The notes: a model not told the origin generated them from the sequence alone. Counted from the stretch's first letter, positions 365-52,632 are shown. The stretch is 64,000 bases of DNA from an uncultured delta proteobacterium (GCA_963705115.1 CAVPIX010000016.1:579051-643050); one strand, 5' to 3'. Made by a program: numbers and translations.

Positions 365-406
365 GTTCCTCTTTTGTCCTCCTTGGGGTATATAATATCA
401 AACTGA

Positions 407-660
407 TTATGCCCTTTGCTCCGCAAAGAGAAAAAATATGTTTACGTGGGGGAAGGGCAGGGACCTGAGGTCCCTGCCCTCCCCCACACCCCCCTCCCAA
501 CCCGCAGAGGGTCCGAGAAAGGCGGGGCCATGGGCCCCGACTTTCTCGGGAAATACTCCCCGTAGGGGATTGGGGAGGGGGTGCGGGGGAGGGCTTGCAG
601 CCCTTAGCCCTCTCCCCCGCTAGACCTGCGATAATATCTTTTGCGGAGCAAAGGACATAA
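407..660. repeat. MITE-like nested-palindrome element, full copy with both terminal inverted repeats
   Basis: Left end TTATGCCCTTTGCTCCGCAAAG (407-428) is the reverse complement of right end CTTTTGCGGAGCAAAGGACATAA (638-660) apart from small differences. Interior: hairpin GGGCAGGGACCTGAGGTCCCTGCCC; C-rich arm CCCCCACACCCCCCTCCCAACCC pairing with GGGATTGGGGAGGGGGTGCGGGGG; central hairpin GAGAAAGGCGGGGCCATGGGCCCCGACTTTCTC; hairpin GGGCTTGCAGCCC. Related copies at 19354-19563, 32948-33175, 36941-37153. Confidence 0.75.
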
Positions 661-758
661 TCGAAAGAGCAAAAAGCCGGACGCCAGACCTTCTCCGGAG
701 TTGCTTCGGGGAAGCCGGCTGCATCCCGGCTACACAGCCGCGCAGGGGAGAGTAAACC

Positions 759-1784: not shown

Positions 1785-3677
1785 TCACCTTTCCCGGGCC
1801 ATGTGGGCGTTGGCGAAGTAGCTGGCCAGAAACCGCCGGGCTATGGGCGCGGCCACCTCGCCCCCCTGGCCGCCGTGCTCGACGATGACGGAGACGGCCA
1901 CCTCGGGGTTGTCAGCCGGGGCATAGGCCACGAACCAGGCGTGGTTCTGGAACTTGCGGATACTCCTGCCGGCCTTCTCTTTTTCCAAGGAAACCACCTG
2001 GGAAGTGCCGGTCTTGCCCGCCACCTCCACATCGTAAAGAGCGGCCCGCCGGCCGGTGCCGCTGCGCACCACCCCCAACAAACCCCGGCGCACCGCCGCC
2101 AGGTTGGCGGGACTGGCATCCAGGCGGCCCTGCACTACCGGCTGAAAGCGGTAGAGAATTTCCCCAGCCGGGGTTTCCACTTTATCCACCAACTGGGGCT
2201 TGTAAACCGTGCCGCCGTTGGCCACGGTGGCGGCCATCCAGGCCACCTGCAAGGGCGTGGCCAGGTTGTACCCCTGACCGATGGACAGGTTCAAGGTGTC
2301 GCCCTCGGTCCAGGGGGCCCTGTAACGGGTGCGCTTCCATTCCGGAGTGCCGATCAGCCCCGGCAGTTCCCCCCCGAGCTTGAGCCCCGAAGGAACGCCC
2401 ATCCCGAATTTCTTGCCCCATTGGGCGATGCGCTCGATGCCCAGCCGGCGCCCCACCTCGTAAAAATAGACATCGCAGGACTGCACCAGGCCCTGATACA
2501 AGGCCACGCTGCCGTGCCCCGACTTTCTATGGCAGCCGAACTCATGATTGCCCACGGTGAGATACCCGGAGCAATGAAAAGTGGTGTGGGGAGTGATGAC
2601 CTTTTCCTCCAGGCCGGCCAACGCCATGAGAATCTTGAAGGTGGAGCCGGGGGGATACTGTCCTTTGATGGTGCGGTTCATCAGGGGATGGTTCTTATTG
2701 TCCAGGAGCTTCTGCCATTCCTCGGCTTTAACCCCCCCCTGGAAGGTTTCCTGGGAGAAACTGGGGGAGGAGGCCAGGACCAGAACCTTGCCGTTTTGGG
2801 GGTTGATGGCCGCAATGGCGCCCACCTTGCCCTGGAGGATGTTTTCGGCCTCCCGCTGCAAACGGGTGTCCAGGGTCAACCGGATGTTGGCCCCGGAGAT
2901 TGCGGCGGTTTGGTCCAGGCTGCCCAACTCCCGGCCAAAGGCGTCCACCTCGATGCGGCGGGAGCCCTGCCGGCCCCGGAGAGTGTCCTCCCAGGACGCC
3001 TCGATGCCGGAGCGGCCGATATAATCCCCCATCTTGTAGGAGGGGTAACGGCCGCTCTTGAGCTGGGGATCGGTGATTTCCCCGATGTAGCCCAATATAT
3101 GGCTGGCCACGGAGGGCTGATGATAGACCCTTTTAGCGGCAATGACGATGAACACCCCGGGAAGTTCGGCCTTATAGGTCTCCACCAGGGCCATCTCGTC
3201 CCAGGCAAGGTGGGTTTTGAGACGCACCTGGGTGAGACCGGCCTGGCGAGCCTTGTCAATCTGGGCGGTGATCACACTCCCGTCAATTTTCAGGAGCGAC
3301 CCCAGACGCCGGCCCAAAAGCTCCGGGTCCTGGATGTCTTCCAGGGTGGCCATGAGGTTGAAGCTGTGCTGGTTGTCCACCAGGACCGCGCCGCTCCGGT
3401 CCAGGATCATGCCCCGCCAGGAGGGCAGATCGAGAGAGCGGATGCGGTTGGATTCCGAACGGGTCTGGAGATACTCCCCCTGGACCAACTGGAGATACCA
3501 GAGGCGCAGAAAAAGAAGCCCAAAGAGCAGGAGCACCACCGGGGCCACCCTTATCAGGACCCGCCGGGAGCGCTCCAGCTCCTCCGGGGTCATGCTGTCG
3601 CCCAGGGGTTCTTCCTGGTAAGGGTATTGCAGCGGCTGGGAAGGTTTATCGAGCTTCATGTAACCATCATCAAGCAT
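1785..3677 (-). CDS. mrdA: penicillin-binding protein 2 (elongation-specific transpeptidase)
   Basis: 630-aa ORF; N-terminal TM helix, active-site STFK (PPGSTFKILMALAG), KTGT motif (VAGKTGTSQV); last gene of the mreBCD-mrdA string. Confidence 0.9.
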   Translation of the reverse strand: MLDDGYMKLDKPSQPLQYPYQEEPLGDSMTPEELERSRRVLIRVAPVVLLLFGLLFLRLWYLQLVQGEYLQTRSESNRIRSLDLPSWRGMILDRSGAVLVDNQHSFNLMATLEDIQDPELLGRRLGSLLKIDGSVITAQIDKARQAGLTQVRLKTHLAWDEMALVETYKAELPGVFIVIAAKRVYHQPSVASHILGYIGEITDPQLKSGRYPSYKMGDYIGRSGIEASWEDTLRGRQGSRRIEVDAFGRELGSLDQTAAISGANIRLTLDTRLQREAENILQGKVGAIAAINPQNGKVLVLASSPSFSQETFQGGVKAEEWQKLLDNKNHPLMNRTIKGQYPPGSTFKILMALAGLEEKVITPHTTFHCSGYLTVGNHEFGCHRKSGHGSVALYQGLVQSCDVYFYEVGRRLGIERIAQWGKKFGMGVPSGLKLGGELPGLIGTPEWKRTRYRAPWTEGDTLNLSIGQGYNLATPLQVAWMAATVANGGTVYKPQLVDKVETPAGEILYRFQPVVQGRLDASPANLAAVRRGLLGVVRSGTGRRAALYDVEVAGKTGTSQVVSLEKEKAGRSIRKFQNHAWFVAYAPADNPEVAVSVIVEHGGQGGEVAAPIARRFLASYFANAHMARER

Positions 3678-9600: not shown

Positions 9601-10976
9601 CCTGGCCCGAGGCGGGGGACACCATTGCGGCCGTCGCCACGCCCCCGGGAGAGGCGGGCATCGGCATCGTGCGGCTGAGCGGCCCCCAGGCCGAGAGCAT
9701 CGCCCGCCGCCTCTTCCGCCCCCGCCGGCCCCGAGACTCCTGGCAATCCCACCGCCTGTACCTGGGGGACTTTCTTGACTCCCAGGGGCATGTCCTTGAC
9801 GAAGTCCTCCTTACCCTCATGCGGGCTCCCCAGAGCTACACCCAAGAAGATGTGGTGGAAATTCACTGTCATTCGGGGTATGCGGTTTTGCGGGCTGTAC
9901 TGGGAGAGGTTCTGGCCCAGGGGGCACGCCTGGCCCGGCCCGGGGAGTTCACCCTGCGGGCCTTTCTGTCCGGTCGCCTGGACCTCTCCCAGGCCGAGGG
10001 CGTTCTCGAAGTCATCCAGGCCCGGACCCAGGCCTCCCTGCGGGTGGCCGCAGCGCATCTGGGAGGCGGTTTGGCGCGGCCCCTGGGGGTGTTGCGGGCC
10101 GCGCTTTTGGGGGTACTGGCTCAAATCGAGGCCGCCCTGGACTTTCCGGAGGAGGCGGCTGAACTTTCGCCAGGGGCCTTGCGGGAAGAGTTGGCCGGTC
10201 CCCTAAAGGACTTGCAGCGCCTTCTGAAGACCTACCGGCAGGGGCGCCTGCTCAGGGAAGGGGTGAAGGTGGTCCTGGCCGGCCGCCCCAACGTGGGCAA
10301 ATCCAGCTTACTCAACCGGCTCCTGGACGCGGACCGGGCCATTGTCACCGATATCCCCGGCACCACGAGAGACGTAATCGAAGAAACCCTGACCCTCGGG
10401 GGCGTGGCCCTGTGTGTGAGCGACACCGCCGGGCTCAGGGAGGCCCGGGACCTGGTGGAAGAAATGGGCGTGGCCCGCTCCCGGGATCATATGTCCCAGG
10501 CCGACCTGATCCTCTATGTCGTGGACGGCAGCGAACCTCTCTCGGAGGAAGATGCCCGGGTTTTAGGGGAATTGGCTGAACGCCCCGTTTTGGTGGTGCT
10601 TAATAAGAGAGATTTGCCTGCAAAACTCAATGTCGATGACCTGCGTCGGTATTCCTCTCAGCCGGCGGTGGAGATTTCGGCCCTCACCGGCCAGGGACTG
10701 AAGAATCTCGAAGAGGCGCTGGTGGAACTGGTCCTGGGGGGCGGGGTGCAGACCGAGGGGGAGATCATCACCCAGTCCCGCCATGCCGGCCTGCTAAACC
10801 GGGCCGAGGAAGCCCTGGGGCGGGGTCAGGGGCTTTTGGAACAGGCCGGGCCCCCCTGGGAACTGGCCGCCCTGGAAGTCAAAGAGGCCCTCCTGGCCCT
10901 GGGGGAAATCACCGGAGAGGAAGTGGGGGACGCGGTCCTGGACCACATTTTTTCCCAGTTTTGTATTGGGAAATGA
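9597..10976 (+). CDS. mnmE: tRNA modification GTPase MnmE
   Basis: 459 aa; DTIAAVATPPGEAGIGIVRLSG N-terminus, G-domain GRPNVGKSSLLN / DTAG, C-terminal FCIGK. ATG overlaps the jag stop. Confidence 0.95.
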   Translation: MTWPEAGDTIAAVATPPGEAGIGIVRLSGPQAESIARRLFRPRRPRDSWQSHRLYLGDFLDSQGHVLDEVLLTLMRAPQSYTQEDVVEIHCHSGYAVLRAVLGEVLAQGARLARPGEFTLRAFLSGRLDLSQAEGVLEVIQARTQASLRVAAAHLGGGLARPLGVLRAALLGVLAQIEAALDFPEEAAELSPGALREELAGPLKDLQRLLKTYRQGRLLREGVKVVLAGRPNVGKSSLLNRLLDADRAIVTDIPGTTRDVIEETLTLGGVALCVSDTAGLREARDLVEEMGVARSRDHMSQADLILYVVDGSEPLSEEDARVLGELAERPVLVVLNKRDLPAKLNVDDLRRYSSQPAVEISALTGQGLKNLEEALVELVLGGGVQTEGEIITQSRHAGLLNRAEEALGRGQGLLEQAGPPWELAALEVKEALLALGEITGEEVGDAVLDHIFSQFCIGK

Positions 10977-11407
10977 GGGACGGGGCCAGGGGTCGCAGAC
11001 CCCTCTCCCTTCCTTCAAACTCCCCCACCCCATAATGCGGCAGCACGGGCTTCCAGCCCCTGCCGGCTCGGCCTAAATGCCCGGACTTCCAGCCTTAGCT
11101 CGGGAGCACAGGCATCCAGCCCATAAGCGCTAATTTAAACAATTTTTGTCATTCTGAACGGAGCGCAGCGGAGTGAAGAATCTCGATTCTCCAATGAAAT
11201 TAGAGATTTTTCGCTGCGCTCAGAATGACAAGATCTTAATGTTAGCGCCTATAGGCATCCAGTTTGTGCAGGAACAGGCAGGATGCCTGTTCTCCGATTA
11301 GAAGGGTTGGGAGGGGGTGCAGGGGAGAGGGCAGGCAAGGCCGGGTTTTAAACCCGCCCCTAAATCCCTGGCCCTCCCCCCCGAATGACCTTACGCATTC
11401 CTCAACT

Positions 11408-12064
11408 ATGAAAGATCCCCTGCTCCTGTTAGAGGAAGGCGCTGCGGACCTTGGCATAACGCTGCCCCAAGAGGCCATGTCCCGCTTTGCCGTTTATTTG
11501 CAGGAACTGCAAACCTGGAACGCCCGGGTGAATCTCACCGGCCTGAAATCCCCCCGGGATATTATAATCAAGCACTTTCTCGATTCCCTGGCCATCCTGC
11601 CCTTTCTTGACGATGCGGCCTCCCTGGCGGATTTGGGGAGCGGGGCCGGTTTTCCGGGGCTGGTGCTGAAATTGGCCCAGCCGAAGTTAGCCGTCACCCT
11701 GGTGGAGTCCCGGGGAAAAAAGGCAGCCTTTCTGGAGTATCTGGCGGGGCTCTGGCAGTTGCCCGGGGTGGAAATCATCCAGGCCCACCTGACCCCGAGA
11801 CTGGCGCAGGAATGGGGGCCCCGCTTTGCCGCGGTGACCTCCCGGGCCGCCTTTTCCCTGAAACATTTTCTGGAACTGGCCGCGCCCTTGCTCCTGCCGG
11901 GGGGGCGGGCCCTGGCCCTCAAGGGACCGGGGCTTTCGCCCCAGGAGATCCAGGGGGCGCAGAAACTGCTAACTAGGGTACAATTAGGAAGCCTGGAATT
12001 TACCGAAATTCAGTTGCCTATTTCCGGAGAGACGCGGCTGTTGGTCATAGCCAGGAAAAATTAG
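11408..12064 (+). CDS. rsmG: 16S rRNA (guanine527-N7)-methyltransferase RsmG
   Basis: 218 aa from ATG 11408; WNARVNLTGLKSPRDIIIKHFLDSL and SAM motif DLGSGAGFPGLVL. The upstream 48 codons of track ORF 11264.. translate repeat sequence. Confidence 0.9.
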   Translation: MKDPLLLLEEGAADLGITLPQEAMSRFAVYLQELQTWNARVNLTGLKSPRDIIIKHFLDSLAILPFLDDAASLADLGSGAGFPGLVLKLAQPKLAVTLVESRGKKAAFLEYLAGLWQLPGVEIIQAHLTPRLAQEWGPRFAAVTSRAAFSLKHFLELAAPLLLPGGRALALKGPGLSPQEIQGAQKLLTRVQLGSLEFTEIQLPISGETRLLVIARKN

Positions 12065-12090
12065 CCAATCGGTGTTCGTTCTTCTCTTTT

Positions 12091-12254
12091 CTCGTTCCCA
12101 AGTTTAACTTGGGAACGAGGTGAATAAAGGTCTTGAGTAGTGAGCTTTTCTCTTCTCGTCCCTTTCTTGTTCCCAAACTAAGCTTGGGAACGTTATTATA
12201 AGCCAAGCTGAGCTTGGCAGCCAGGTGCGCTCCCAAGTGCAACTTGGGAACGAG
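12091..12254. repeat. cluster of four related short hairpins (stem GTTCCCAAG...CTTGGGAAC)
   Basis: CTCGTTCCCAAGTTTAACTTGGGAACGAG (12091-12119), GTTCCCAAACTAAGCTTGGGAAC (12169-12191), GCCAAGCTGAGCTTGGC (12202-12218), CTCCCAAGTGCAACTTGGGAACGAG (about 12230-12254). Confidence 0.8.
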
Positions 12255-12397
12255 CCATTCAAAACCCCATCCAACCCCATCAATGGTAGCACGGGCATCC
12301 TGCCCGTGTCTGGACGGGCTGGAAGCCCGGCCTACCGGGCTTAGGTCTGATTGTGATAATAAGGTGCTTGAACTTTCTAAAAGAAGGATATTTCTAA

Positions 12398-12748
12398 ATG
12401 TCCCTTAAAATAATGTCAATCTTGCCTGTCTTATTACTCACAGCCTCCCTGACCATCCAGGGCTGCACCGCCGCCGCGGTGGCTTATGGGGTCAGCAAGA
12501 TGACCGAGCCTAAGACTCAATCTCCTCAACCGCCGCCCCGGGCCGCGGAACTGCGCACCTATCCCGAGTACGTCACGGAAATGGAACGGATTAATCTGGA
12601 GCGGGAGAAAGCCGGTCTGCAACCCCGTCCCATCATGACCCAGGATGAGTGGGCCTCGGCCCAGAAGGCCGGCAGCCCGCCCGTGCCGCCGGCTCCCCCC
12701 GTCCCACCTGCTGAACCACCCGGAAAAGCGGTTGAATATAAAGAATAA
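12398..12748 (+). CDS. small putative lipoprotein with proline-rich C-terminus
   Basis: 116 aa; signal-like N-terminus ...ILPVLLLTASLTIQGC (lipobox-like), then EPKTQSPQPPPRAAE... and PPVPPAPPVPPAEPP. No family recognised. Confidence 0.55.
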   Translation: MSLKIMSILPVLLLTASLTIQGCTAAAVAYGVSKMTEPKTQSPQPPPRAAELRTYPEYVTEMERINLEREKAGLQPRPIMTQDEWASAQKAGSPPVPPAPPVPPAEPPGKAVEYKE

Positions 12749-12915
12749 TGCATCATTAAGAGAAGACTTGTTATATTGAGTTGCGTTCTTCTGAGCTATT
12801 TTTGTAGCCGCAGGCTTTAGCCTGCGCCTGCACAGGCTGGAAAGCCTGTGCCACCGTTTGCTGGTATGGATAGACAAATTCACCCAGAGACCTCCTGTCC
12901 TTCAAACCGAAAACC

Positions 12916-13641
12916 ATGAACCATACAATTTTTCAGGCTTTGGGACTGATGCTCCTGTCCGTGATTGGTTTTAAGGAGGCAGTGGCGTCAGGCCCAGATT
13001 CCTTTGCCACAGAACGGCAGGCCATGGTGGCCCAGCAGCTCAAGGCCCGGGACATCACCGATCCCCGGGTGCTGGCGGCCATGGCAAAGGTCCCCCGGCA
13101 CCGGTTCGTGCCGGATTATCTCAGCCATCAGGCCTACGGCGACCATCCCCTGCCCATAGGCTCCGGCCAGACTATTTCCCAGCCCTATATCGTGGCCCTC
13201 ATGTCCCAGTGGGCCGAGGTCAAGCCCGGAGACAAGGTCCTGGAGGTGGGCACCGGCTCGGGGTATCAGGCGGCCATCCTGGCCGAACTCACGGAGCGGG
13301 TTTTCACCATGGAACTGCTCCCCGAATTGGCCGAAGCCGCGGGACGCCGCCTCCGGGCCCTGGGGTATGAACGCATCCAGGGGCGGGCCGGCGACGGCTA
13401 TCAGGGCTGGCCCGAGGAAGCCCCGTTTGATGCCATCCTGGTCACGGCCACCGCGCCGGAAATCCCCAAGGCATTACAGGAACAGCTCAAAGAGGGGGGC
13501 CGCCTGGTCATCCCGGTGGGACCCCAGGGGAGCGTGCAGCAACTCCTGCGCCTGCGCAAGGTGAAGGGTGAACTTAAAGAGGAAGAGCGCGTTCCCGTCC
13601 TTTTCGTGCCCCTGGTGAAGCCCGGGGAGGGGAAGAGGTAA
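12916..13641 (+). CDS. pcm: protein-L-isoaspartate O-methyltransferase paralogue with N-terminal signal peptide
   Basis: 241 aa; same PIMT motifs as 759..1442 ([36 protein letters not shown]), preceded by MNHTIFQALGLMLLSVIGFKEAVA-SG. Confidence 0.9.
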   Translation: MNHTIFQALGLMLLSVIGFKEAVASGPDSFATERQAMVAQQLKARDITDPRVLAAMAKVPRHRFVPDYLSHQAYGDHPLPIGSGQTISQPYIVALMSQWAEVKPGDKVLEVGTGSGYQAAILAELTERVFTMELLPELAEAAGRRLRALGYERIQGRAGDGYQGWPEEAPFDAILVTATAPEIPKALQEQLKEGGRLVIPVGPQGSVQQLLRLRKVKGELKEEERVPVLFVPLVKPGEGKR

Positions 13642-13650
13642 AGGGATATT

Positions 13651-13712
13651 GGGGGAAGGGCCAGGGACCTGAGGTCCCTGCCCTCCCCCCAAGCCCCCCA
13701 CCCAACCCGCAG
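13651..13712. repeat. partial copy (first modules only) of the MITE-like element
   Basis: GGGGGAAGGGCCAGGGACCTGAGGTCCCTGCCCTCCCCCCAAGCCCCCCACCCAACCCGCAG, starting 10 nt after the pcm-2 stop. Confidence 0.7.
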
Positions 13713-13717
13713 AAGGG

Positions 13718-13755
13718 GCTGGCAAGTCAGAACCCTGACTTGCCAGCTATTTTTC
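13718..13755 (+). terminator. rho-independent terminator candidate after pcm-2
   Basis: 13-bp perfect stem GCTGGCAAGTCAG / CTGACTTGCCAGC with 4-nt loop, followed by TATTTTTC. Confidence 0.6.
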
Positions 13756-13912
13756 AGTCCCCTTAAAGGATTGGACGGGCTTCCAGCCCGTCCGGGCACG
13801 GGCTGGAGGCCTGTGCTCCTGCTCTAATGTGAGCGATTGTAGAGGAAGCTCGCCGGAGGGGGCAGGGGGCCGCGACCCCTGGCCCCCTCCCTCAAGTGCA
13901 TTGCCATGCTCC

Positions 13913-14848
13913 TTAGCCCCCTCCCCCACTCTTCACGGCCATCTCCAGGGCCCGGATGAGTTGGGTGAGGCAGTGGTTCACCGGCGCGGCGATGCCGTGT
14001 CTTTCCCCCCGGGCCGCGACCTGGGCGTTTAAGGCCTCGATTTCGGTGCGGCGGCCGGCCGCGGCGTCCTGGAGCATGGAAGAGCGGTTCTGGGCCGTAG
14101 CCGTGCAGACTTCTTTGAGGCGCTTTTCGGGATCTACGGTCAGATTGATGCCGCTGGCTAGGGCCACGGCCTTGGCTTCGGCGGCTGCAGCCACGGCCAG
14201 GTTCCAGGCCGGGGGCAGGTTCAAGAGCTCGCCGTTATTTACCCGCAACAGGGCCGTGAGGGGATTGATGCCCACGTTTACCAGGAGCTTTTCCCAGAGA
14301 GCGGCTTCGATATCGCCTCGCACTTCGCAGGGCAAACCGGCCCGCCGGAAGAGGTCCGCCACGGCCTGCACCTCGTCAGGGGCAACTTGGGAGCCTGACG
14401 GCGGGCCCACATAGGTTGGGCCCAGGCCGGCCAGATACACCTCGCCCTCGCCCAGTTTGGTGACCCCCAAAATACTGCTCCCCCCCAACAGGCGACCCCA
14501 GCCCACCACCCGGGCCATTTCCTCCAGATTCCCCAGACCGTTTTGCAAGGTAAGGGCCACGCCCCCGGCGCCCAGGAGCAGGGGCAGGCTCTCCACCGCG
14601 GCCGCGGTCTGATGGGCCTTGACCGTGAGGACGGCCAGGTCCGACAGACCCACATCCCCAGGCAAGGCGGCGGGGACTTTCACCACCTGGTCCGGTCCCG
14701 CCGGCGTCTTCAGGAGAAGACCCCGGCGATGCAAGGATTCAGCCCGCGCCGGCCGGTAATCCACCAGCCAGGCCTCTTCCCCGGACAAGGTGAATTTGGC
14801 GGCCAAAAGACAACCCAGGGCGCCGGGGCCGATAACGGCAATTTTCAC
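13913..14848 (-). CDS. panE: 2-dehydropantoate 2-reductase (ketopantoate reductase, ApbA/PanE family)
   Basis: 311 aa; N-terminal Rossmann MKIAVIGPGALGCLLAAKF, C-terminal ApbA-type domain (...RSSMLQDAAAGRRTEIEALNA...). Confidence 0.85.
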   Translation of the reverse strand: MKIAVIGPGALGCLLAAKFTLSGEEAWLVDYRPARAESLHRRGLLLKTPAGPDQVVKVPAALPGDVGLSDLAVLTVKAHQTAAAVESLPLLLGAGGVALTLQNGLGNLEEMARVVGWGRLLGGSSILGVTKLGEGEVYLAGLGPTYVGPPSGSQVAPDEVQAVADLFRRAGLPCEVRGDIEAALWEKLLVNVGINPLTALLRVNNGELLNLPPAWNLAVAAAAEAKAVALASGINLTVDPEKRLKEVCTATAQNRSSMLQDAAAGRRTEIEALNAQVAARGERHGIAAPVNHCLTQLIRALEMAVKSGGGG

Positions 14849-15029
14849 AGGTTGAACTCCGGAGAGTAATGACTGAAAAATTGTTTGCCCGTCACAAGCT
14901 GCACATTATGTTTTAGTTTCATATAATTTCGATGCAAAATTGGTTAAAGTTATTTGAAATCTCACCGAGTTAAGATACTATAACTGAAAATTACGGAATG
15001 GGGGAAAAAGGGGTTTGGCGGCCGCAACC

Positions 15030-15719
15030 ATGCCCAGGCAATTGGATCGAGAATTAAATGCTCTCAAGCAAAAGCTCCTCATCATGGCCACCAAGGCGGA
15101 AGAGGCAGTGCAGAAGAGCTTGTTTTCCGTCATCCACCGCAACTCCGATTTGGCCCGGGATGTCATTACCGATGACATTCAGTTGAATCAAATGGAGTTG
15201 GAAATCGAAGAACAGGCCTTCAAACTCCTGGCCCTACGGCAACCGGTGGCCACCGATTTGCGTCTGATCATTGCCACCATGCGCATCGCCACCACCCTGG
15301 AACGGATCGGCGACCAGGGAGTGAATATCGCCGAGCGGGCCCTGGAGCTCAACAACGCCCCCCCCGTGGAACTGCCCATCGACATGAAGATGCTGGGTGA
15401 CATGGCCTTTGGCATGGTGCGCACCAGCATCGACGCCTTTGTGCAGCAGGACCCCAAACTGGCCATCCAGGTGTGCCAGCGGGACACCGAGGTGGACCTT
15501 CTGGACGACGAGTACACCCAGAAGATCCTGGACACCATGATCAGCGAGGCCCGCTGGGTGATGCGCCTGCATCACTTCATTATTGTCATGCGGAATCTGG
15601 AGCGCATCGCCGATTTGGCCACCAACATCGCCGAGGACATTGTCTTCATTGTGGAAGGCCGGGTCATCAAGCACAGGTGCGAGGACTGGTTTCTGACCGG
15701 GAATCCAACCTCATCTTAG
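15030..15719 (+). CDS. phoU: phosphate signalling complex protein PhoU
   Basis: Two PhoU repeats (ERIGDQGVNIAE and ERIADLATNIAEDI). ATG at 15030 preferred over the TTG at 15015. Confidence 0.9.
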   Translation: MPRQLDRELNALKQKLLIMATKAEEAVQKSLFSVIHRNSDLARDVITDDIQLNQMELEIEEQAFKLLALRQPVATDLRLIIATMRIATTLERIGDQGVNIAERALELNNAPPVELPIDMKMLGDMAFGMVRTSIDAFVQQDPKLAIQVCQRDTEVDLLDDEYTQKILDTMISEARWVMRLHHFIIVMRNLERIADLATNIAEDIVFIVEGRVIKHRCEDWFLTGNPTSS

Positions 15720-17046
15720 CCTGGGCCATCTTTTCCTCTAAAAATTTTACTTCCTGCTCCAAACGGGGCTGCAACTGGCGATCACGCTCCAGGGTCTGGA
15801 GGGCATGGACCACGGAGCCGTGGCTCCGCTGGAAAAGGCGTCCCAGTTCCACCACGGTCTTCATGGTATAGAGGCGGGAAAAGTAAAGGCCGACCTGCCG
15901 GGCCCGCACCAGCTTTTTCTGCCGGCCGCGCCCTAATAACTCCCTGACGTTGATCTGGTAATAATCGCAGACAATTTTCTGGATCTGGCCGACGCTCAGA
16001 CGGGGGGCCACGGCCTTTAAATCGTGGAGGACTTCCTGGGCCAGGGGCAGGCTCACGGGCTGCCCCAGGAGGGTGGAGCGGGCCACCAGGCAATCCAGGG
16101 CGCTTTCCAGACGGCGCACGTCGCCGCTGATATGCTCTGCCACGTGCTCCATCACCGGGGTGGGCACCTTGACGCCCCGATCCTCCGCTTTTCTGGTCAA
16201 AATCTCCACCCGGGTGGCAAAGTCCGGGGGGGCGATGGGCGTGATGAGGCCGCCGGTGAACCGGGAGCGCAGTTCCTGGGACAGCTGGCTGATTTCACCG
16301 GGAAGGTAACAACTGGTGAGGACCAGCTTTTTGCGGCGGTCCAGCAGGGTGTCCAGGGTATAGCACAGTTCAGCCTGGATCTTCTCCTTGCCCGCGAGAA
16401 ACTGCACCTCTTCCATGAGGAGCACATCGCACTCACCCCGGTAGCGCTCCTTGAACCGGGACATCTGGTCCCCTTTCAGGGCCTTGACCATGTCATTGGT
16501 AAAATCCTCGGCAGTTACATAACGAACGGACGGTTGGGGCGCGGCGGCCAGGAGGCAGTTGCCCACGGCCTGGGCGAGATGGCTCTTCCCCAAGCCGGGG
16601 TTGGCCGTGAGAAACAGGATGCCGCTGAAAAAGGTGTCTTTGCGGGCCAGGGCCTCGGCGGCCCGGAAAGCCAGGCGGTTGGAGCCCCCCACCACAAAAT
16701 TATTGAAGGTGAATTCCCGATTCAGGCTGCGCCCCTGGGGGCGGGCCTGGCCGGGAAGAGGAAGGGTCAGCTGCCCGGCCGCGGGCATCGGCGCCAGGGG
16801 GCGGGGGCGGGACGGGGCCGAGGTCAGCTTTACCGGCAGGGGATGGCCTGCCTGGGTCAACACCTGGCTGATATGGGGGAGATAATGGGACTTGACCCAA
16901 CGAAGCGCAAAAGGATTGGGACAGATGAGCTGGAGTTCACCTCCGGACCCCTGGTCCACCTCCAAGGGCTCAATCCATAAAGAAAATCCTGACGGGGAGA
17001 TGTGGTCCTTCAGATCAGCTTTGACGACTTCCCAAATTTCCTGCAT
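15667..17046 (-). CDS. dnaA: chromosomal replication initiator protein DnaA
   Basis: AAA+ Walker A (NPGLGKSHLAQAVGN), Walker B (LLMEEVQFL), C-terminal DNA-binding helix region (RARQVGLYFSRLYT...LGRLFQRSHGSVVHA). ATG at 17046 preceded by AGGGGG. The 3' end overlaps phoU by 53 nt. Confidence 0.95.
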   Translation of the reverse strand: MQEIWEVVKADLKDHISPSGFSLWIEPLEVDQGSGGELQLICPNPFALRWVKSHYLPHISQVLTQAGHPLPVKLTSAPSRPRPLAPMPAAGQLTLPLPGQARPQGRSLNREFTFNNFVVGGSNRLAFRAAEALARKDTFFSGILFLTANPGLGKSHLAQAVGNCLLAAAPQPSVRYVTAEDFTNDMVKALKGDQMSRFKERYRGECDVLLMEEVQFLAGKEKIQAELCYTLDTLLDRRKKLVLTSCYLPGEISQLSQELRSRFTGGLITPIAPPDFATRVEILTRKAEDRGVKVPTPVMEHVAEHISGDVRRLESALDCLVARSTLLGQPVSLPLAQEVLHDLKAVAPRLSVGQIQKIVCDYYQINVRELLGRGRQKKLVRARQVGLYFSRLYTMKTVVELGRLFQRSHGSVVHALQTLERDRQLQPRLEQEVKFLEEKMAQAKMRLDSRSETSPRTCA

Positions 17047-17464
17047 ATTTCCCCCTATGTTGAGCCGCATATTACTTATCATCTCCCTTGATCGTCAAAG
17101 TCGGTATCTCGAAATAGAGGTTAGCGCCCACAGGAATACACCTTGAGGTAAGGGCCGTTAAACCTCAAGCTTGGCCTCAGCGAACGGAGTAAGGAAATTC
17201 CTTATGGAAGAAAACTCTGATTTAGCCGGTTCTTGGGTCAATTAACCCCGCAAACCTGCCTTCCTAGTAATCTCGCGTTTGCTGCTTTTTTTACGCTTTT
17301 TTATAGGGGAACGCTCAAAGAGGTTACAAAAATTGGTAAGGCGTTAAATTTCCATAAGGATGACTTAACATCTTTTTAATTATAGTTATATCAATACGTT
17401 AATTAAATTAATAGCAACCCTGGGAGCTTCTCTGACAGAGGTCTGGGGAGGCTCTATGGTTCCC

Positions 17465-17492
17465 TTGACAAATCCGGCGCAGCGGCTATGAT
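17465..17492 (+). promoter_or_regulatory. candidate sigma70-type promoter of the GNAT gene
   Basis: TTGACA (17465-17470), 16-nt spacer, TATGAT (17487-17492). If used, it excludes the ATG at 17488 as start and favours the ATG at 17524 (RBS AGGGGA). Confidence 0.3.
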
Positions 17493-17523
17493 GCTAGAAA
17501 GCGCTGAAACTCAGGGGAAAGCC

Positions 17524-18093
17524 ATGTTCAATTATGCGGCCTATCGCAAGTTCGTGACTTTGCAAGACGGCAAGCGGGTGATGTTCCGTTTTCTCAATGA
17601 ACAGGACCGGGAGGAATTGATCCGCCTCTTCCAGGAAGCCCCGGAAGAAGATCTGCGCTTCCTCAAACAGGACGTCAGAGACGCGAAACTGGTGAATTTC
17701 TGGGTGGACAACCTGAACTATAACAAAATCCTGCCGCTGGTGGCCGTGAACCTGGAGGGCAACCGGCTGATTGCCGACGCCACCCTGCACCGGGGCAAAC
17801 ACGCGGCCAAACACATCGCCGAGGTGCGCATTTTTGTGTCCCGGCCCTTCCGCAACCTGAGTTTGGGGTCCCTGATGCTGGAGGAGCTCGTCAACCTGTC
17901 GAAAAAAGAGGGCCTCCACTGGCTCAGAGCCGAAATTGTGGCGGACCATAAGAAAGTAATCAAGGCCTTTCGCAGCAAGGGTTTCGAGATTCGGGCCACC
18001 CTGGAGGACTACTTTATCCGGAAAGACGGCATCACTCACGACGTGGTCCTCATGCTGCGCCCGGTGCAGAAGCGGGAGGAGGCCGAGTTTTAG
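17524..18093 (+). CDS. GNAT-family N-acetyltransferase
   Basis: Acetyltransferase-fold pattern (...AEVRIFVSRPFRNLSLGSLMLEELVNLSKKEGLHWLRAEIVADHKKVIKAFRSKGF...). Start could also be 17488. Confidence 0.7.
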   Translation: MFNYAAYRKFVTLQDGKRVMFRFLNEQDREELIRLFQEAPEEDLRFLKQDVRDAKLVNFWVDNLNYNKILPLVAVNLEGNRLIADATLHRGKHAAKHIAEVRIFVSRPFRNLSLGSLMLEELVNLSKKEGLHWLRAEIVADHKKVIKAFRSKGFEIRATLEDYFIRKDGITHDVVLMLRPVQKREEAEF

Positions 18094-18177
18094 GGGCAAA
18101 CACCTCAAGGGTTATGCTGTTTTTGAGGGAGGGAGGGGGAAGGTGCACCTGGCCCTCCCTTTTGGTTTGAGAATACT

Positions 18178-19353
18178 ATGAGTGCGGTGATTTCCGGATT
18201 AGAGGTTTTTCTGCAATCCCCCCCGTCATGGGCCGCCGGGGCCGACCTGGGGCTTTTGTGCCATCCCGCCAGCGTGGACCGCAACTTCCGGCCCGCCCCG
18301 GAGCTGGTGGTCCGGCGCTTTCCCGGCCGCCTGCGGGTGCTTTTTTCTCCCCAACATGGCCTCAAGGGCGAAAAACAGGACAACATGGTGTCCTCCCCTG
18401 ATTTTGAGGACCCCTTGCTCGGCATACCGGTGGTCAGTCTTTACGGCCCCCGCCTGGACCCGCATCAGGAAGCCCTGCAGGGCCTGGATGTCTTGCTGGT
18501 GGACCTCCAGGATGTGGGCACCCGGGTGTACACCTACGGGGCCACCCTGGCCCGGGTCATGGCCGCGGCCGCCCAAGCCGGGGTGAAGGTGGCAGTGCTG
18601 GACCGGCCTAATCCTGTGGGGGGCCTCCAGGTTGAGGGCAATATCCTGCGCCCCCAGTGGGCCTCCCTGGTGGGCCCTTACCCCTTGCCCATGCGCCATG
18701 GCTTCACCCTGGGGGAGTTGGCCCGTTATTACAACGCCACGCAAAACCTTGGCTGTGATCTCGAAGTAGTCCCGGCCCGGGGTTGGCGCCGGGAGGACTA
18801 CTTCGACGCCGCCGGTCTTCCCTGGGTGCTGCCCTCCCCCAACCTGCCCACCCTGGAGGGGGCCATCGTCTATCCCGGCCAGGTGCTCCTGGAGGGCACC
18901 AATCTTTCCGAAGGCCGGGGCACCACCCGCCCCTTCGAGTTGTTCGGCGCCCCCTTTCTGGAACCCCGCCGCCTGCGGCACGAACTCTGGGACACCCCTC
19001 TGCCGGGGGTCATTCTGCGGGAGGTGGGTTTTGAGCCCACCTTTCACAAATGGGCCGGGGAGCTTTGCCATGGTTTTCAGCTCCACGTCACCGACCGGGA
19101 GGCCTTCAAGCCCTATTACACCACCCTGGGCCTGCTCGCGGCCATCCGGCGCCTCTACCCGGAGCAGTTCGCCTGGCGCCAGCCTCCCTATGAATATGAA
19201 ACCGAGCGTCTGCCCATTGATTTACTGACCGGGGACGCGGCCATCCGGGAAGGCATTGACACGGGCCGGGCTGTTCCTGAGCTGGAGGCTGCCTGGCAGC
19301 CCGGCCTCAAGGACTTTGCCACGGCCAGCCGAGAGTTTTGGTTGTATCGATAG
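18178..19353 (+). CDS. DUF1343 family protein (YbbC/NamZ-like exo-beta-N-acetylmuramidase family)
   Basis: 391 aa; matches my recollection of the family pattern: ...FSPQHGLKGEKQDN..., VVSLYG, LVDLQDVGTRVYTY, VLDRPNPVGG, PMRHGFTLGELA. Confidence 0.8.
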   Translation: MSAVISGLEVFLQSPPSWAAGADLGLLCHPASVDRNFRPAPELVVRRFPGRLRVLFSPQHGLKGEKQDNMVSSPDFEDPLLGIPVVSLYGPRLDPHQEALQGLDVLLVDLQDVGTRVYTYGATLARVMAAAAQAGVKVAVLDRPNPVGGLQVEGNILRPQWASLVGPYPLPMRHGFTLGELARYYNATQNLGCDLEVVPARGWRREDYFDAAGLPWVLPSPNLPTLEGAIVYPGQVLLEGTNLSEGRGTTRPFELFGAPFLEPRRLRHELWDTPLPGVILREVGFEPTFHKWAGELCHGFQLHVTDREAFKPYYTTLGLLAAIRRLYPEQFAWRQPPYEYETERLPIDLLTGDAAIREGIDTGRAVPELEAAWQPGLKDFATASREFWLYR

Positions 19354-19563
19354 TGGGGGGAGGGCCAGGGACCTGAGGTCCCTGCCCTCCCCCCACACCC
19401 CCCTCCCAACCCGCAAAGGGGCCGAGAAAGTCGAGGTCTTACTCTCGACTTTCTCGGGAAATTCTCGCCATAAGGGATTGGGGGAGGGGGTAAGGGCCCA
19501 CCGGCCCTTAGCCCCCTCCTCCGCAGAGATTCGATGATTGCTTTTGCGGAGCAAAGGACATAA
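19354..19563. repeat. MITE-like element copy lacking the left terminal repeat
   Basis: Begins directly after the stop at 19353 with GGGGGGAGGGCCAGGGACCTGAGGTCCCTGCCC..., has the same module order as 407-660, and ends in CTTTTGCGGAGCAAAGGACATAA. The central hairpin has a different sequence but the same structure (GAGAAAGTCGAGGTCTTACTCTCGACTTTCTC). Confidence 0.75.
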
Positions 19564-19658
19564 TCGAAAACAGAAAAACCTGCTTGCCTTGTGAAAAAGA
19601 CGGAAAAGGTATACCATGAAGCCAAGGTCCTGGTTTTATTCCAGGAAAAAGGACCCTT

Positions 19659-20612
19659 GTGAACAACCGATTGATGAAAAAAAGTATGAGCTTACCCCTG
19701 GTGATCCTCTGGCTCTGGGCCGTCCTGTTCCTGGCCGGTTGCGGCGAAGGGGAACCCATTAAAAAGATTGATTTGTCGCAGCGGGAGGAGGTCACGGTCC
19801 GTGGGCCTGAGAACGCCATCACCTATGCCTATCTCCCCCAATATGCCCACACGGTGTCTTATGAACGGCACCACCTGGTGGTGGACTATCTGAGCCGCGC
19901 CACCGGCCTGGCCTTCCGCCAGGTGTTTCCCGACACCTTTGACGAACACATGAACATGGTGGGAAGGGGCCTCATCGACATCACCTTCAGCAACCCCTTT
20001 ATTTATGTGAAGATTGCCGACCTCTACGGGGCCCGGGCCTTTGCCCGCATCGTGGAAGACAAGGGCAAGGAAAATTTCCGCGGCCAGATTATTGTCCGGG
20101 CCGACAATCAGCAGATAAAGACCCTGACGGACATAAGGGGCAAGCGCCTGATTGCCGTGGACCCCACCTCCGCCGGGGGGTTTCTCTATCCCTGGGGTTT
20201 GATCCTGGAGCAGGGCATCCGCAAGGAAGATCTGGCGGAAATCGCCTTCGCGCCGGGACCCGGGGGCAAACAGGAAAAGGTGGTCATGGCGGTGTTGTCG
20301 GGCAAATACGACGTGGGCATCATCCGGGAAGGGACCCTGGATATCATGGCCGGCAAGATCGACCTCAACCGCATCCGGGTGCTGGCTCACTCCCATTGGT
20401 ACCCGGGGTGGGTCTATGCGGCGAGGCGGGGGCTCGACCCAGGTGTGGTGGACAAAATCAGAACCGCACTGCTGGAGCTGAACGCAGACAATCCCGAACA
20501 CGCCGCCATCCTTAAAAAGGCCGGCTTCATGGCCATTGTTCCGGCCAGGGATGAGGATTTCAACCCGGTGCGGCGCCTGGGCCAGTTCGTGGTAACCGGC
20601 GAAAAACCCTGA
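19659..20612 (+). CDS. PhnD-like (phosphonate/phosphate ABC-type) periplasmic substrate-binding lipoprotein
   Basis: 317 aa; lipobox LFLAGC; PhnD/SsuA-type binding fold pattern (YLPQY..., FRGQIIVRADN..., GGFLYPW...). No ABC permease or ATPase adjacent; the next gene is a sensor kinase. Confidence 0.75.
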   Translation: MNNRLMKKSMSLPLVILWLWAVLFLAGCGEGEPIKKIDLSQREEVTVRGPENAITYAYLPQYAHTVSYERHHLVVDYLSRATGLAFRQVFPDTFDEHMNMVGRGLIDITFSNPFIYVKIADLYGARAFARIVEDKGKENFRGQIIVRADNQQIKTLTDIRGKRLIAVDPTSAGGFLYPWGLILEQGIRKEDLAEIAFAPGPGGKQEKVVMAVLSGKYDVGIIREGTLDIMAGKIDLNRIRVLAHSHWYPGWVYAARRGLDPGVVDKIRTALLELNADNPEHAAILKKAGFMAIVPARDEDFNPVRRLGQFVVTGEKP

Positions 20613-32936: not shown

Positions 32937-32947
32937 TGGGTATCCGA

Positions 32948-33175
32948 TTATTCCCTTTGCTCCGCAGAGGGAATAAAGTTGTTCACGTGGGGGGATGGCC
33001 AGGGACCTAAGGTCCCTGCCCTCCCCCCACACCCCCCTCCCAACCCGCAGATGGTACGAGAAAGGCGGGGCCAAAGCCCCGCCTTTCTCGGGAAATACTC
33101 CCCTTAAGGGATTGGGGGTGGGGGTGCGGGGGAGGGGGTAAGGGCTTGCAGCCCTTAGCATCCTTCCCCGCTAAG
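32948..33175. repeat. MITE-like element copy lacking the right terminal repeat
   Basis: Starts TTATTCCCTTTGCTCCGCAGAG, then GGCCAGGGACCTAAGGTCCCTGCCC, CCCCCCACACCCCCCTCCCAACCCGCAG, central hairpin GAGAAAGGCGGGGCCAAAGCCCCGCCTTTCTC, GGGATTGGGGGTGGGGGTGCGGGGGAGGG, GGGCTTGCAGCCC. Confidence 0.75.
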
Positions 33176-33184
33176 CTTCGAAAT

Positions 33185-33742: not shown

Positions 33743-34145
33743 ATATTTGTCAATGAAAGGTGGGAAAGGAATCCTGGAAGTGCCGGCCCAGCCTGGAAGC
33801 CTGTGCCACCGGCCCCTGCCCTCTCTCCGAAAATCAGGCTCCTGCCTTAAGCGGGAGGACAGGCGTCCCGCCTTTGCACACAGGCATAAAGCCTGGCCTT
33901 CCCCCACTAAGACCGGTAGCACGGCATCCTGCCCGTGCCGGACGGGTTGGCGCCTCTCAAATAGTTAAAAGACGGTGAGGGGGGGTCTCGCCCGCCATCA
34001 TGGCGCGCAGTGCGCACCCCTCCCCACTTGGAACCTTCCTTGCACTTTGAACTTTTCCAAGCACCCACACTATAATTGAGGTTGCAAGGAAGGGCAAATT
34101 CATTTACAAAAAGCGAGGTTTCTTTGCTTTTCGGGGGATAATGGC

Positions 34146-36185: not shown

Positions 36186-36190
36186 CTTGC

Positions 36191-36252
36191 GGGAGGAGGG
36201 CCAGGGACCGACGATCCCTGCCCTCCCCCCACACCCCCCTCCCAACCCGCAG
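36191..36252. repeat. partial copy (first modules) of the MITE-like element
   Basis: GGGAGGAGGGCCAGGGACCGACGATCCCTGCCCTCCCCCCACACCCCCCTCCCAACCCGCAG, starting 6 nt after the EF-G stop. Confidence 0.7.
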
Positions 36253-36515
36253 ATACTTGGCGGCTAACAGCGAGGGTTTCAACCAAATGTCCCAATGAAG
36301 TTGGCTATTTAGCAGGATTGGGGAAAGAGTTTTGTTTTTTAAAAGATAAAACCTTGCGTTACCTTCATACCGATTTAGTAGGCAAACTTTATAAAGATTT
36401 TGATCCACAAAATCCAGACGAAACAATTCCGCCTAATTTGATAAAATCCTTACAAGATAAAGGGATATCCTAAGGCATGAAAGCTTTATCAAAAAACTAT
36501 CCAGAGAGTTAAGTT

Positions 36516-36935: not shown

Positions 36936-36940
36936 TTCGA

Positions 36941-37153
36941 TTATCTCTTTTGCTCCGCAAAAGGCATAAATTAGCGGGGGAGGGGGCTAAGGGCCGGCGG
37001 GCCCTTACCCCCTCCCCCACACCCCCTCCCCCAATCCCTTAAGGGGTTTATATAGTGTATGGGGCCAGGCCTAAGGCCCGGCCCCATACAACCTCTATAG
37101 CGGGTTGGGAGGGGGGTGTGGGGGGAGGCCAGGGACCTCAGGTCCCTGGCCCT
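36941..37153. repeat. MITE-like element copy in inverted orientation, with a different central hairpin
   Basis: TTATCTCTTTTGCTCCGCAAAAGGCATAA..., GGGGGAGGGGGCTAAGGGCCGGCGGGCCCTTACCCCCTCCCCC..., central TATAGTGTATGGGGCCAGGCCTAAGGCCCGGCCCCATACAACCTCTATA, GGGTTGGGAGGGGGGTGTGGGGGG, GGCCAGGGACCTCAGGTCCCTGGCC. Confidence 0.7.
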
Positions 37154-37184
37154 TCACCCACAACTCCATCCGGTTGATAATCCC

Positions 37185-40012: not shown

Positions 40013-40233
40013 TGATAATTGATAAGGGATTTATGAGGGGAGGGCTGGGGGAGCGGCGGCTCCCCCACCCTCCCCTCATACTCCCCTCCCAACCCCCTAT
40101 TAGTAGGCCGGGAGAGTCGGGGAAATCTCCCCGACACCCCGGCAAATTTTAAGCTAATCAAAGGGTTGGGGGAGAGGGCTTGGGAGAGGGGGCAGGGACC
40201 CTCTGGTCCCTGGCCCCCTCTCCCAAAATCTTT

Positions 40234-45882: not shown

Positions 45883-46234
45883 GACAATTTCTCTGGTGGT
45901 CGGCCAGTGGCGTAGGGGCGGGTTTGAAACCCGCGCCTGCTGGTTCTCCTCCCTCATCCCACCCAGCCGCTTCGGCCGGTAGCACGGGAATCCTGCCCGT
46001 GCCTTGACGGGCTGGAAGCCCGTTCTACCGCGCTATACTAAGTTGCGATCATAAGAGTAAAGTTATAATTATTTGCTATACCTATCAAATCCCCCTAAAT
46101 CCCTCCCAAGTTGATTGTAGGGGCTTGTTTTATCAAGCCCTAAGGGCGCAATAACTTGCGCCCCTGCGGGGTTGGTAGAGGGGTTTTGGTGAGGGGGGGC
46201 AGGGGCTTGCGACCTCTGGCCCCCTCCCCTGTCT

Positions 46235-50260: not shown

Positions 50261-50338
50261 GGTGGGCGTAGCTCAGTTGGTTAGAGCACCGGGTTGTGGC
50301 CCCGGAGGCCGCGGGTTCAAGTCCCGTCGCTCACCCCA
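50261..50338 (+). tRNA. tRNA-His (anticodon GTG) with encoded G-1 and CCA
   Basis: Manual cloverleaf: G-1; acceptor GTGGGCG/CGCTCAC; D arm GCTC-AGTTGGTTA-GAGC; anticodon arm CCGGG-TTGTGGC-CCCGG; variable AGGCC; T arm GCGGG-TTCAAGT-CCCGT; discriminator C; CCA. Confidence 0.95.
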
Positions 50339-50349
50339 ATGATTTCAAA

Positions 50350-50383
50350 GGGTTAGGCTTATGGCCTAGCCCTTTTCTTTTTC
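50350..50383 (+). terminator. rho-independent terminator candidate after tRNA-His
   Basis: GGGTTAGGC-TTATG-GCCTAGCCC (9 bp incl. one G:U) followed by TTTTCTTTTTC. Confidence 0.6.
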
Positions 50384-51962: not shown

Positions 51963-52139
51963 GCCATGTCTTCTGATAGACACTCCTTCTTTAGCCCCGC
52001 CACGATCGCCTCACTATGGGCTTCTGGTGGGGAAATTTCAAACTTTAGGCTCTCAATCTTTTTATAGAGGTATTTTAGGGGTCAATTTGAGCATGTTTTA
52101 ATGCCAACATACACTCTACTGTAAGTCCAAGCATTTATT

Positions 52140-52547: not shown

Positions 52548-52632
52548 AACTTAAAAATCCATGCCGTGAAATTATTTAGAATAAGTGTACCTCTAATTTT
52601 CCAAGGGCTAATAGACTTGCCAACATCAATTA

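Follow-up and report, generated by a model that had tools for sequence, protein, structure and literature searches.

The repeat at positions 404-663

The window analysed here is a stretch of 64,000 nucleotides from an uncultured delta proteobacterium (GCA_963705115.1, CAVPIX010000016.1:579051-643050). [quoted passage not shown] An earlier description made from the sequence alone (the sequence-only reading) had placed the element at 407-660, with terminal inverted repeats (TIRs) and a covarying central hairpin. On its left is a small open reading frame (ORF) at 161-364 on the minus strand (67 aa), which scores weakly as coding sequence and matches no Pfam family. On its right is a gene at 759-1442 that matches PF01135. 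The index copy consists of the following parts.

404-438, plus strand: left terminal hairpin H4 (TGATTATGCCCTTTGC-TCC-GCAAAGAG...), which includes the left 'TIR' and pairs with the right H4 in the minimum free energy fold.
446-489, plus strand: hairpin H1 (GTGGGGGAAGGGCAGGGACC-TGA-GGTCCCTGCCCTCCCCCAC), found in the profile and in the fold; its apical stem covaries across the family.
488-503, plus strand: C-rich arm (ACCCCCCTCCCAACCC), the predicted partner of the G-rich arm.
513-549, plus strand: variable central hairpin (CCGAGAAAGGCGGGGCC-ATG-GGCCCCGACTTTCTCGG), with compensatory changes at all 18 pairs among 71 copies.
565-582, plus strand: G-rich arm (GGGGATTGGGGAGGGGGT), partner of the C-rich arm; in combination with H3's 5' arm it makes a canonical G-quadruplex (G4) motif.
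583-621, plus strand: hairpin H3 (GCGGGGGAGGGC-TTGCA-GCCCTTAGCCCTCTCCCCCGC), found in the fold; its apical stem covaries.
630-663, plus strand: right terminal hairpin H4 (GATAATATCTTTTGC-GGA-GCAAAGGACATAATCG), which includes the right 'TIR'.

The motifs reported by the sequence-only reading stand at the positions it gave and recur far beyond chance. The C-arm sequence CCCCCAMRCCCCCCWCCCAACCC has six exact copies in the window compared with 0.02 expected, and the 'TIR' TTATGYCCTTTGCTCCGCAAA has five (407+, 640-, 19543-, 32948+ and 36941+) compared with 0.01. The first-hairpin motif occurs at five sites in the window, and a general repeat search yields the same families. A profile built from 90 aligned copies was used with nhmmer to search the window and other genomes. 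In the window it found six full copies, one split copy and two partial copies, or nine to ten copies and fragments overall, which is about one element per 6-7 kb. Over 776 kb it gave 183 non-redundant matches, 85 of them full length, and each full copy was matched on both strands. The proposal of a multicopy, non-autonomous palindromic family is supported.

Sharp limits of conservation across the 90 copies define a core of about 190 nt. Its consensus is TGTGGGGGGAGGGCCAGGGACCTGAGGTCCCTGCCCTCCCCCC ACA CCCCCCTCCCAACCC - variable hairpin - AAGGGATTGGGGGAGGGGG TNT GGGGGAGGGGGTAAGGGCC...GGCCCTTAGCCCCCTCCCCC AAAA, and its modules follow each other in the order H1 (about 19 bp), C-rich arm, central hairpin, G-rich arm and H3. 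The two halves are mutually reverse-complementary, which makes the core an inverted doublet whose unit measures about 65 nt. The first hairpin had been recognised correctly but is longer than described (GGGGGGAGGGCCAGGG...CCCTGCCCTCCCCCC, about 19 bp). The sequence previously called the 'TIR' is one arm plus the loop of the self-complementary 35-nt hairpin H4 (CGATTATGYCCTTTGC-loop-GCAAAGGRCATAATCG). H4 immediately adjoins the core on the outside, and the 'TIR' is about 20 nt away from the core. The true ends of the element are 2-3 nt beyond the limits first proposed, at 404/405 and 663. At 407-660 the 21-nt ends match each other with one Y position, and they pair in the fold.

Terminal hairpins, target duplications and mobility

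The 'TIR', found five times in the window, occurs only three times in 712 kb of other genomes. A metagenome scan with this sequence, using a search pattern that demanded the hairpin form of the end, gave 36 loci. In all 36, H4 is directly outside an H-type hairpin with a conserved linker between them. The consensus ends CGATTATGYCCTTTGC and GCAAAGGRCATAATCG recur across these loci, and similarity ends at CATAATCG. Double-ended copies exist in two forms. The long form of about 255-260 bp is represented by 404-663 in the window and by the metagenome loci L109 (identical to L130) and L106. The short form of about 125-135 bp has a single H hairpin and is found in L110, L119 (identical to L129), L122, L126, L135 and L137. 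Both forms, like the core, are below the limit of about 600 bp for bacterial MITEs.

AT-rich direct repeats of 8-11 bp flank the element at 7 of the 10 distinct double-ended loci. The same sequence stands at both sides in L109 (AAAATCATAA), L110 (ATTAGGGTTTT), L119 (TTATATTAA) and L122 (AAAAAATAT), and in L106 9 of 10 bases are identical. Among the 12 double-ended copies, 9 (from 7 of the 10 distinct loci) had junctions that matched each other at 7 or more of 8 positions, where 1.6 were expected and the maximum in 500 shuffles was 5. The mean junction match of double-ended copies was 7.17 compared with 5.13 +/- 0.32 after shuffling. This evidence comes from the 10 distinct double-ended loci. 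It identifies the flanking repeats as target-site duplications of about 10 bp, and therefore the elements bounded by H4 are MITEs in the strict sense.

Spread within a single genome was also observed. The metagenome-assembled genome (MAG) MFD04408.bin.1.59 has four copies that are 93-97% identical including the central hairpin, although their flanks are unrelated, which shows recent spread within that genome. This sub-family has other outer inverted arms, GAGAGCTCTG... and ...CAGAGGTCTC, and two of its four copies have 7-nt flanking repeats. The outer-arm motif GAG(A/C)(G/C)CTCTG(C/A)(G/A)AAA is located at L007 6309/6521, L101 1274/1488 and 2524, L090 4772 and L060 2496. Strings like it occur near some gene starts elsewhere, and also at L085 2299. 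The motif GAGMYCTCTG was considered as a possible translation-start signal; its gene context is inconsistent.

In the mechanism that we propose, the outer arms of H4, CGATTATGYCCTTTGC and GCAAAGGRCATAATCG, would be the terminal inverted repeats. A trans-acting transposase, presumably of the DDE type, would bind and cut at the H4 ends, and the element would insert into AT-rich sites with duplication of about 10 bp. Duplications of 9-11 bp are typical of some DDE insertion sequence (IS) families, for example IS4-like or ISAs1-like. In genomes of about 60% G+C, AT-rich sites may be found mostly just past stop codons and in short spacers, and the position of copies 0-12 nt past genes would follow from such a target preference. 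The cargo would be the older core of about 190 nt, an order-wide structure in which two inverted copies of a G/C-rich hairpin unit enclose a variable hairpin. Either strand of the core folds into three domains of very high stability. The core is widespread without H4 and has different outer arms in one other genome, which points to more than one mobilising system or to retention at the host level.

Several observations weigh against this reading. The index copy itself has no convincing duplication (flanks ATATCAAAC and AAAGAGCAAA, best match 6/8), so that 407-660 does not stand as a duplication-bearing insertion; this is compatible with an old copy, but it is not positive evidence. Three further copies in the window carry H4 at one end only, and most members of the family are core-only and have no H4. 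Core-only copies had no direct repeats on their flanks, whether at the ends of the core, at any offset or within 60 nt, and the duplication was also absent in a within-genome core-only pair that is 89% identical. The interior is conserved and the ends are variable, which is the opposite of a typical MITE family. No inverted H4 pair enclosing a transposase was found in about 950 kb; the pattern of the metagenome scan called for hairpin ends, and an autonomous IS with plain TIRs would have escaped it. The ORFs between distant H4 pairs are housekeeping genes, and no multicopy protein clusters were found among the examined loci. The long form had no plasmid match, the C-arm and the H4 unit had no match in viral contigs, and a 16-mer of the end gave only single chance-level matches there. 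No partner transposase emerged from these searches. The proposal of a MITE thus holds for the TIR-bounded copies, with duplications at 7 of 10 loci, and not as a general feature of the family, because most copies in other genomes have neither TIR nor duplication.

Copies in the window and in related genomes

The copies in the window, together with one related hairpin, are given below; repetitive extragenic palindromic sequences are abbreviated REP.

404-663, plus strand: index copy, long form of 254-260 bp (core match 447-618), with H4 at both ends.
10973-11381, minus strand: split copy, with model positions 68-188 at 10973-11076 and 4-71 at 11294-11381; about 218 bp are inserted centrally, and the copy and the stop codon of the 9597-10976 gene overlap.
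13649-13895, plus strand: full copy between convergent genes, its G-arm interrupted by a GTAG-type REP pair (13769-13825).
18094-18178, plus strand: single H-like hairpin (GGGAGGG...CCCTCCC) followed by TTTT, terminator-like; a full element is at the same site in L022.
19353-19566, plus strand: core (19353-19522), linker and right H4 (19532-19566); it begins at the last base of a stop codon.
32945-33180, plus strand: left H4 (32945-32978), core (32987-33169) and after it a GCTAAGCTTCGA linker, with no right H4.
36190-36334, plus strand: partial copy, H1 and C-arm followed by diverged sequence; it starts 5 nt past a stop codon.
36938-37162, minus strand: full core (36976-37162) with H4 (36938-36971) adjoining its H3 end.
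40034-40227, plus strand: full diverged copy with a profile score of 92 bits, part of the 71-copy alignment.
46091-46229, plus strand: partial copy, centre and H3, found as a profile match.

The sequence-only reading was correct that copies stand next to stop codons at 13641, 19353, 32936 and 36185. Some of its smaller items are repeats as claimed but need to be reassigned. What had been listed as a 'partial' copy (13651-13712) and a 'distant relative' (13850-13900) are not separate items but the two ends of one element interrupted by a REP pair. The 'distant relative' at 10975-11010 is a family member but corresponds to the H3 end of the split minus-strand copy. Another, at 18125-18160, is a single G/C hairpin with TTTT at the site where the related genome L022 has a full element. 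The recurrent pseudo-peptides that had been attributed to the element do derive from it, and they are merely translations of the repeat. In the 71-copy alignment the indels between copies are not multiples of three, and one block is about 17 nt. Such indels break every frame, so that no conserved reading frame is possible and the element is non-coding.

Separate families of classical REP palindromes tagged GTAG/TAGGG (for example GGTAGCACGGGCATCCTGCCCGTG) are located at 11039-11095, 12285-12341, 13769-13825, 33759-33815 and 45978-46034. These tagged REPs nest inside the loops of the G/C element and its relatives. Further such REPs are at 23375-23428/48690-48743 and 44871-44902/48650-48681.

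A scan of one genome per species gave at least 102 loci, all in MAGs whose labels read Desulfobaccales, Desulfobaccia or 'uncultured delta proteobacterium'. Among the matches listed, the family is in at least 27 assemblies, which are species-level Desulfobaccales MAGs. Beyond the seeding match, the loci of other genomes hold about one further copy per 10 kb. Identity with the 'multicopy nucleotide sequences' of Geobacter was considered and dropped because the genome scan placed the family in Desulfobaccales. The metagenome locus L120 (Ga0209254_10022480) is identical to 19463-19640 of the window, and the organism of the window was therefore present in that metagenome sample.

Comparison of related sites showed both turnover and persistence. 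L106 (Ga0078972_1000169) is syntenic with 11667-19353 of the window at about 77% identity, and one of its spacers holds an H4-bounded MITE, in contrast to the GTAG-type REP pair present there in the window. An empty site for this MITE could not be recognised in the window, since the spacers are too diverged to align. An element of L041 occupies a site at which the stop and start codons overlap in L071. The single hairpin and TTTT at 18094-18178 of the window correspond to a full element in L022, and a single hairpin of L081 corresponds to a full element in L084. The comparison of 18094-18178 with L022 suggests either a relationship between the H unit and local terminators or a preference of the element for terminators as targets. 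An element is also found at the L009 site orthologous to the split copy at 10973-11381. Two protein-L-isoaspartate O-methyltransferase paralogues in the window, 759-1442 and 12916-13641, share 73-79% nucleotide identity over several blocks, and each adjoins an element. After the pcm paralogue an element is present in the window (13649-13895), in L009 and in L106, with conserved arms and unrelated central hairpins.

Folding, gene context and comparison with known repeats

The core has a mean predicted fold energy of -132 kcal/mol per 186 nt. The index copy folded as DNA has -95 kcal/mol (z = -13.5), and its opposite strand folded as RNA has z = -12.2. In the fold of the index copy the two outer units pair and close the structure. 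Covariation was examined in a sequence-based MAFFT alignment of 71 full copies, with the structure taken from one member. Paired cells made up 87.9%, compared with 81.1% in column shuffles and 44-64% with slid partners, and 377 cells were changed on both sides compared with 128 +/- 9; the shuffle control is uncorrected for the relatedness of copies, whereas the slid control corrects for it. Compensatory change was found at 18 of 18 pairs of the central hairpin, confirming the covariation proposed for it, and the apical stems of H1 and H3 behave likewise. The pairing of C-arm and G-arm is almost invariant, so that covariation is uninformative for it.

The same signal is seen on both strands. 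The plus strand gives the more stable fold in 35 copies and the minus strand does so in 49 (p = 0.07), and the strands have 270 and 332 G-U pairs. This symmetry fits palindromic DNA and not a strand-selected transcript. Equal folding of the strands and unbiased orientation to genes (28 sense, 21 antisense) argue for palindromic DNA rather than strand-specific RNA, and the suggestion that secondary structure is under selection is not borne out at the RNA level. A G4 motif is present on both strands in 67 of the 85 full copies, on the plus strand in 69 and on the minus strand in 83. Examples in the window are 565-600 (plus) and 447-503 (minus), and the G4 tracts are also mirror repeats. Most canonical G4 motifs of the window come from the elements, which supply 9 of the 11 plus-strand motifs and 9 of the 14 minus-strand motifs.

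Gene context was determined with gene calls from our own simple codon model. Among the 85 full copies, 24 lie between convergent genes, 49 between co-directional genes (the 28 sense and 21 antisense copies) and three between divergent genes, while nine have one called neighbour. An adjoining gene 3' end was found for 73 of 76 full copies (96%). The nearest stop codon is at a median of 6-7 nt from either element end and the start codon at about 20 nt, so the element is usually the entire spacer. The index copy belongs to the few that occupy a divergent spacer, and this placement of 404-663 is uncertain given the weak coding support for the ORF at 161-364.

Terminator, promoter and RNA functions were considered. 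No terminator-like sites were found in the window regions 300-800 and 19250-19700. Only 1 of 65 copies has five or more T among the 8 nt that follow the central hairpin or H3, and the flanks of the element are T-rich on the 5' side and A-rich on the 3' side, the reverse of what a terminator requires. With no U-tract after the hairpins in either direction, the elements are not canonical Rho-independent terminators, and the terminator role suggested earlier is not supported. The 'TIR' always points to a gene start in the window, yet there is no sigma-70 promoter consensus in the same two regions and the metagenome loci show a physical repeat end; a promoter or operator was therefore rejected. 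At gathering score, Rfam matched only a tRNA at 50262 in the window. A relaxed Rfam search of 380-700 matched only models of the miRNA-precursor type, at no more than 36 bits compared with cut-offs of at least 42 bits. An RNA gene was rejected on the Rfam searches and strand symmetry. Effects on neighbouring genes through 3' hairpin protection, mRNA stabilisation, a block to read-through or G4 formation would be plausible only by analogy, for transcripts with REP, ERIC and Correia elements (PMC10969869, PMC3184786).

A separate feature of the window is an island of low G+C content (41-50%) at about 50262-54400, after the tRNA gene at 50262-50335. A universal stress protein gene (51069-51962) lies in it, as does a fragment (53622-54374, minus strand) whose sole match is to the C-terminal specificity domain of Type ISP restriction enzymes. 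The island looks like a decayed integrated element.

The position of the family at gene ends can also be read as retention by the host. The element would then be a structural or regulatory gene-end module kept by the host, with mobility secondary, and would serve as a non-canonical terminator or insulator, as a 3' mRNA stabiliser, or as a cruciform, G4 or i-motif site to which nucleoid or topology proteins bind, like BIMEs. This agrees with the 73 of 76 full copies that adjoin the 3' end of a gene (median distance 6-7 nt) and with the role of the element as sole spacer between many convergent genes. G/C runs are nearly invariant across species and loops and apical stems vary; in three species arms are conserved and centres unrelated at one orthologous site, and G4 motifs on both strands mark 67 of 85 copies and make up most of those in the window. 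However, no hairpin is followed by a U-tract in either direction, and orientation is unbiased. Conserved arms would result equally from recent common descent or from gene conversion among copies, and a gene-end location is also expected from purifying selection against harmful insertions. We consider this explanation unlikely, though worth keeping in view. In an alternative form, the core would be gene-end punctuation retained by the host (cruciform, G4, i-motif or U-tract-independent barrier to transcription or RNA decay) and repeatedly re-armed with lineage-specific ends such as H4 in the clade of the window or the GAGAGCTCTG arms in MFD04408.bin.1.59. This would explain why the interior is conserved across the order and the ends change, and why at orthologous sites the centre turns over and the arms are stable, but we give it rather little weight. 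Structured non-coding RNA genes or cis-regulatory RNAs would account for the very stable folds and the abundant compensatory changes. They are nevertheless highly improbable, since Rfam gave no gathering-score match for the element and its relaxed matches are generic hairpin models far below cut-offs. Both strands fold equally with similar G-U counts, there is no orientation bias to genes and no promoter-like site in 300-800 and 19250-19700, and copies bear transposon-like ends and target duplications.

A further possibility is that the core is REP- or REPIN-like, moved as single-stranded DNA by a domesticated HUH/Y1 transposase of the REP-associated tyrosine transposase (RAYT) type and inherited vertically, and that the H4 copies are a secondary capture. 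The core has the two inverted units forming a long hairpin that define a REPIN, and this doublet has alternative local and long hairpin folds. Core-only copies without target duplication, singlet hairpins, the location at gene 3' ends with convergent pairs over-represented (24 of 76), and persistence in at least 27 species, where orthologous sites also hold elements, all agree with it. On the other hand, the 5' flank of the element has the profile T (52%), T (53%), G/T, T (87%) and then a G-run (T-K-T-GGGGGG), and the conserved GTAG or CGTC tag expected at the 5' end of REPs, imperfect palindromes of 20-40 nt, is absent from it. A RAYT-like gene at 2998-3474 (minus strand) of L071, the only such gene examined, is flanked by REPs of the TAGGGCGGGCC type and TAGGGCGGGCCGTGCCCGCC instead of H hairpins, and association of the element with RAYT was rejected because this single gene flanks another REP family. 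REPs of that kind are also the ones nested in loops of the element. The query in this search was an E. coli RayT sequence, and only the strong match (E = 3e-37) was trusted. Orientation to genes is unbiased (28 and 21), and H4-bounded members do duplicate their targets. We regard a REPIN-like origin as doubtful, and the MITE family of Desulfobaccales remains our preferred explanation for 404-663.

A density of about one copy per 7-10 kb would make the family a major structural feature of Desulfobaccales genomes. Many short loci from Illumina assemblies end in a copy, and the element may therefore contribute to contig breaks. Translations of the element give spurious ORFs and 'peptides' in MAG annotation; a profile of the element would improve gene calling and could serve as a lineage marker. 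The family would also be a natural case in which a structured core is kept while transposition ends are exchanged, and in which gene-end G4 motifs, or highly stable hairpins that have no U-tract, may bear on termination or mRNA decay in GC-rich anaerobes. The general understanding of MITEs and REPs is unchanged unless a host function is shown.

Among known systems, Correia elements are about 100-200 bp long, with simple 26-bp TIRs and a TA duplication. The present family resembles them in being small and non-coding, with hundreds of copies, TIRs and target duplication, long hairpins when transcribed, and an intergenic location near genes. Its ends are instead 35-nt hairpins, its duplication is about 10 bp, its interior is an order-wide G/C-rich nested palindrome, and no promoter consensus was found. 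The Correia (CREE/NEMIS) elements of Neisseria are bacterial MITEs with outward promoters, an IHF site and RNase III cleavage (PMC10969869). REP/BIME and REPIN-RAYT systems of Proteobacteria (PMC3116915, PMC3337134, PMC3733652) share with the family extragenic palindromes at 3' ends, an inverted doublet, vertical persistence and nesting of repeats, and its core-only copies resemble REP/REPIN in having no target duplication. Unlike REP/REPIN, the family has no GTAG/CGTC tag and a much larger unit (190 nt overall, with halves of about 65 nt), and its H4-bounded members duplicate targets; unlike REPIN-RAYT, the RAYT gene of a related genome flanks another REP family. The pneumococcal BOX, RUP and SPRITE repeats (PMC3049150, PMC10969869) are likewise small, modular, clustered and mutually inserted, as the GTAG REPs are here, but their sequences are unrelated, and SPRITE is terminator-like with a T-run that this family does not have. 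ERIC/IRU and YPAL of Enterobacteria are about 127 bp, co-transcribed, and affect mRNA decay (PMC10969869, PMC3184786). They too are imperfect palindromes inserted after genes, but the sequences are unrelated, and the effect of ERIC depends on orientation whereas this family has no orientation bias. The Chunjie MITE of Geobacter uraniireducens has many partial copies without TIRs or direct repeats (cited in PMC10969869). It is a MITE of a neighbouring 'deltaproteobacterial' lineage that is alike by description only, and nothing indicates homology.

No description of this family was found in the literature. The only paper found that links the order with MITEs counted 25 MITEs in Desulfobaccales-assigned phages and gave no detail (PMC11602168). 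The family is thus a previously undescribed example of a well-known kind of element. It is unusual in that each terminus is itself a hairpin, and in that the interior is conserved across the order while the termini vary by lineage.

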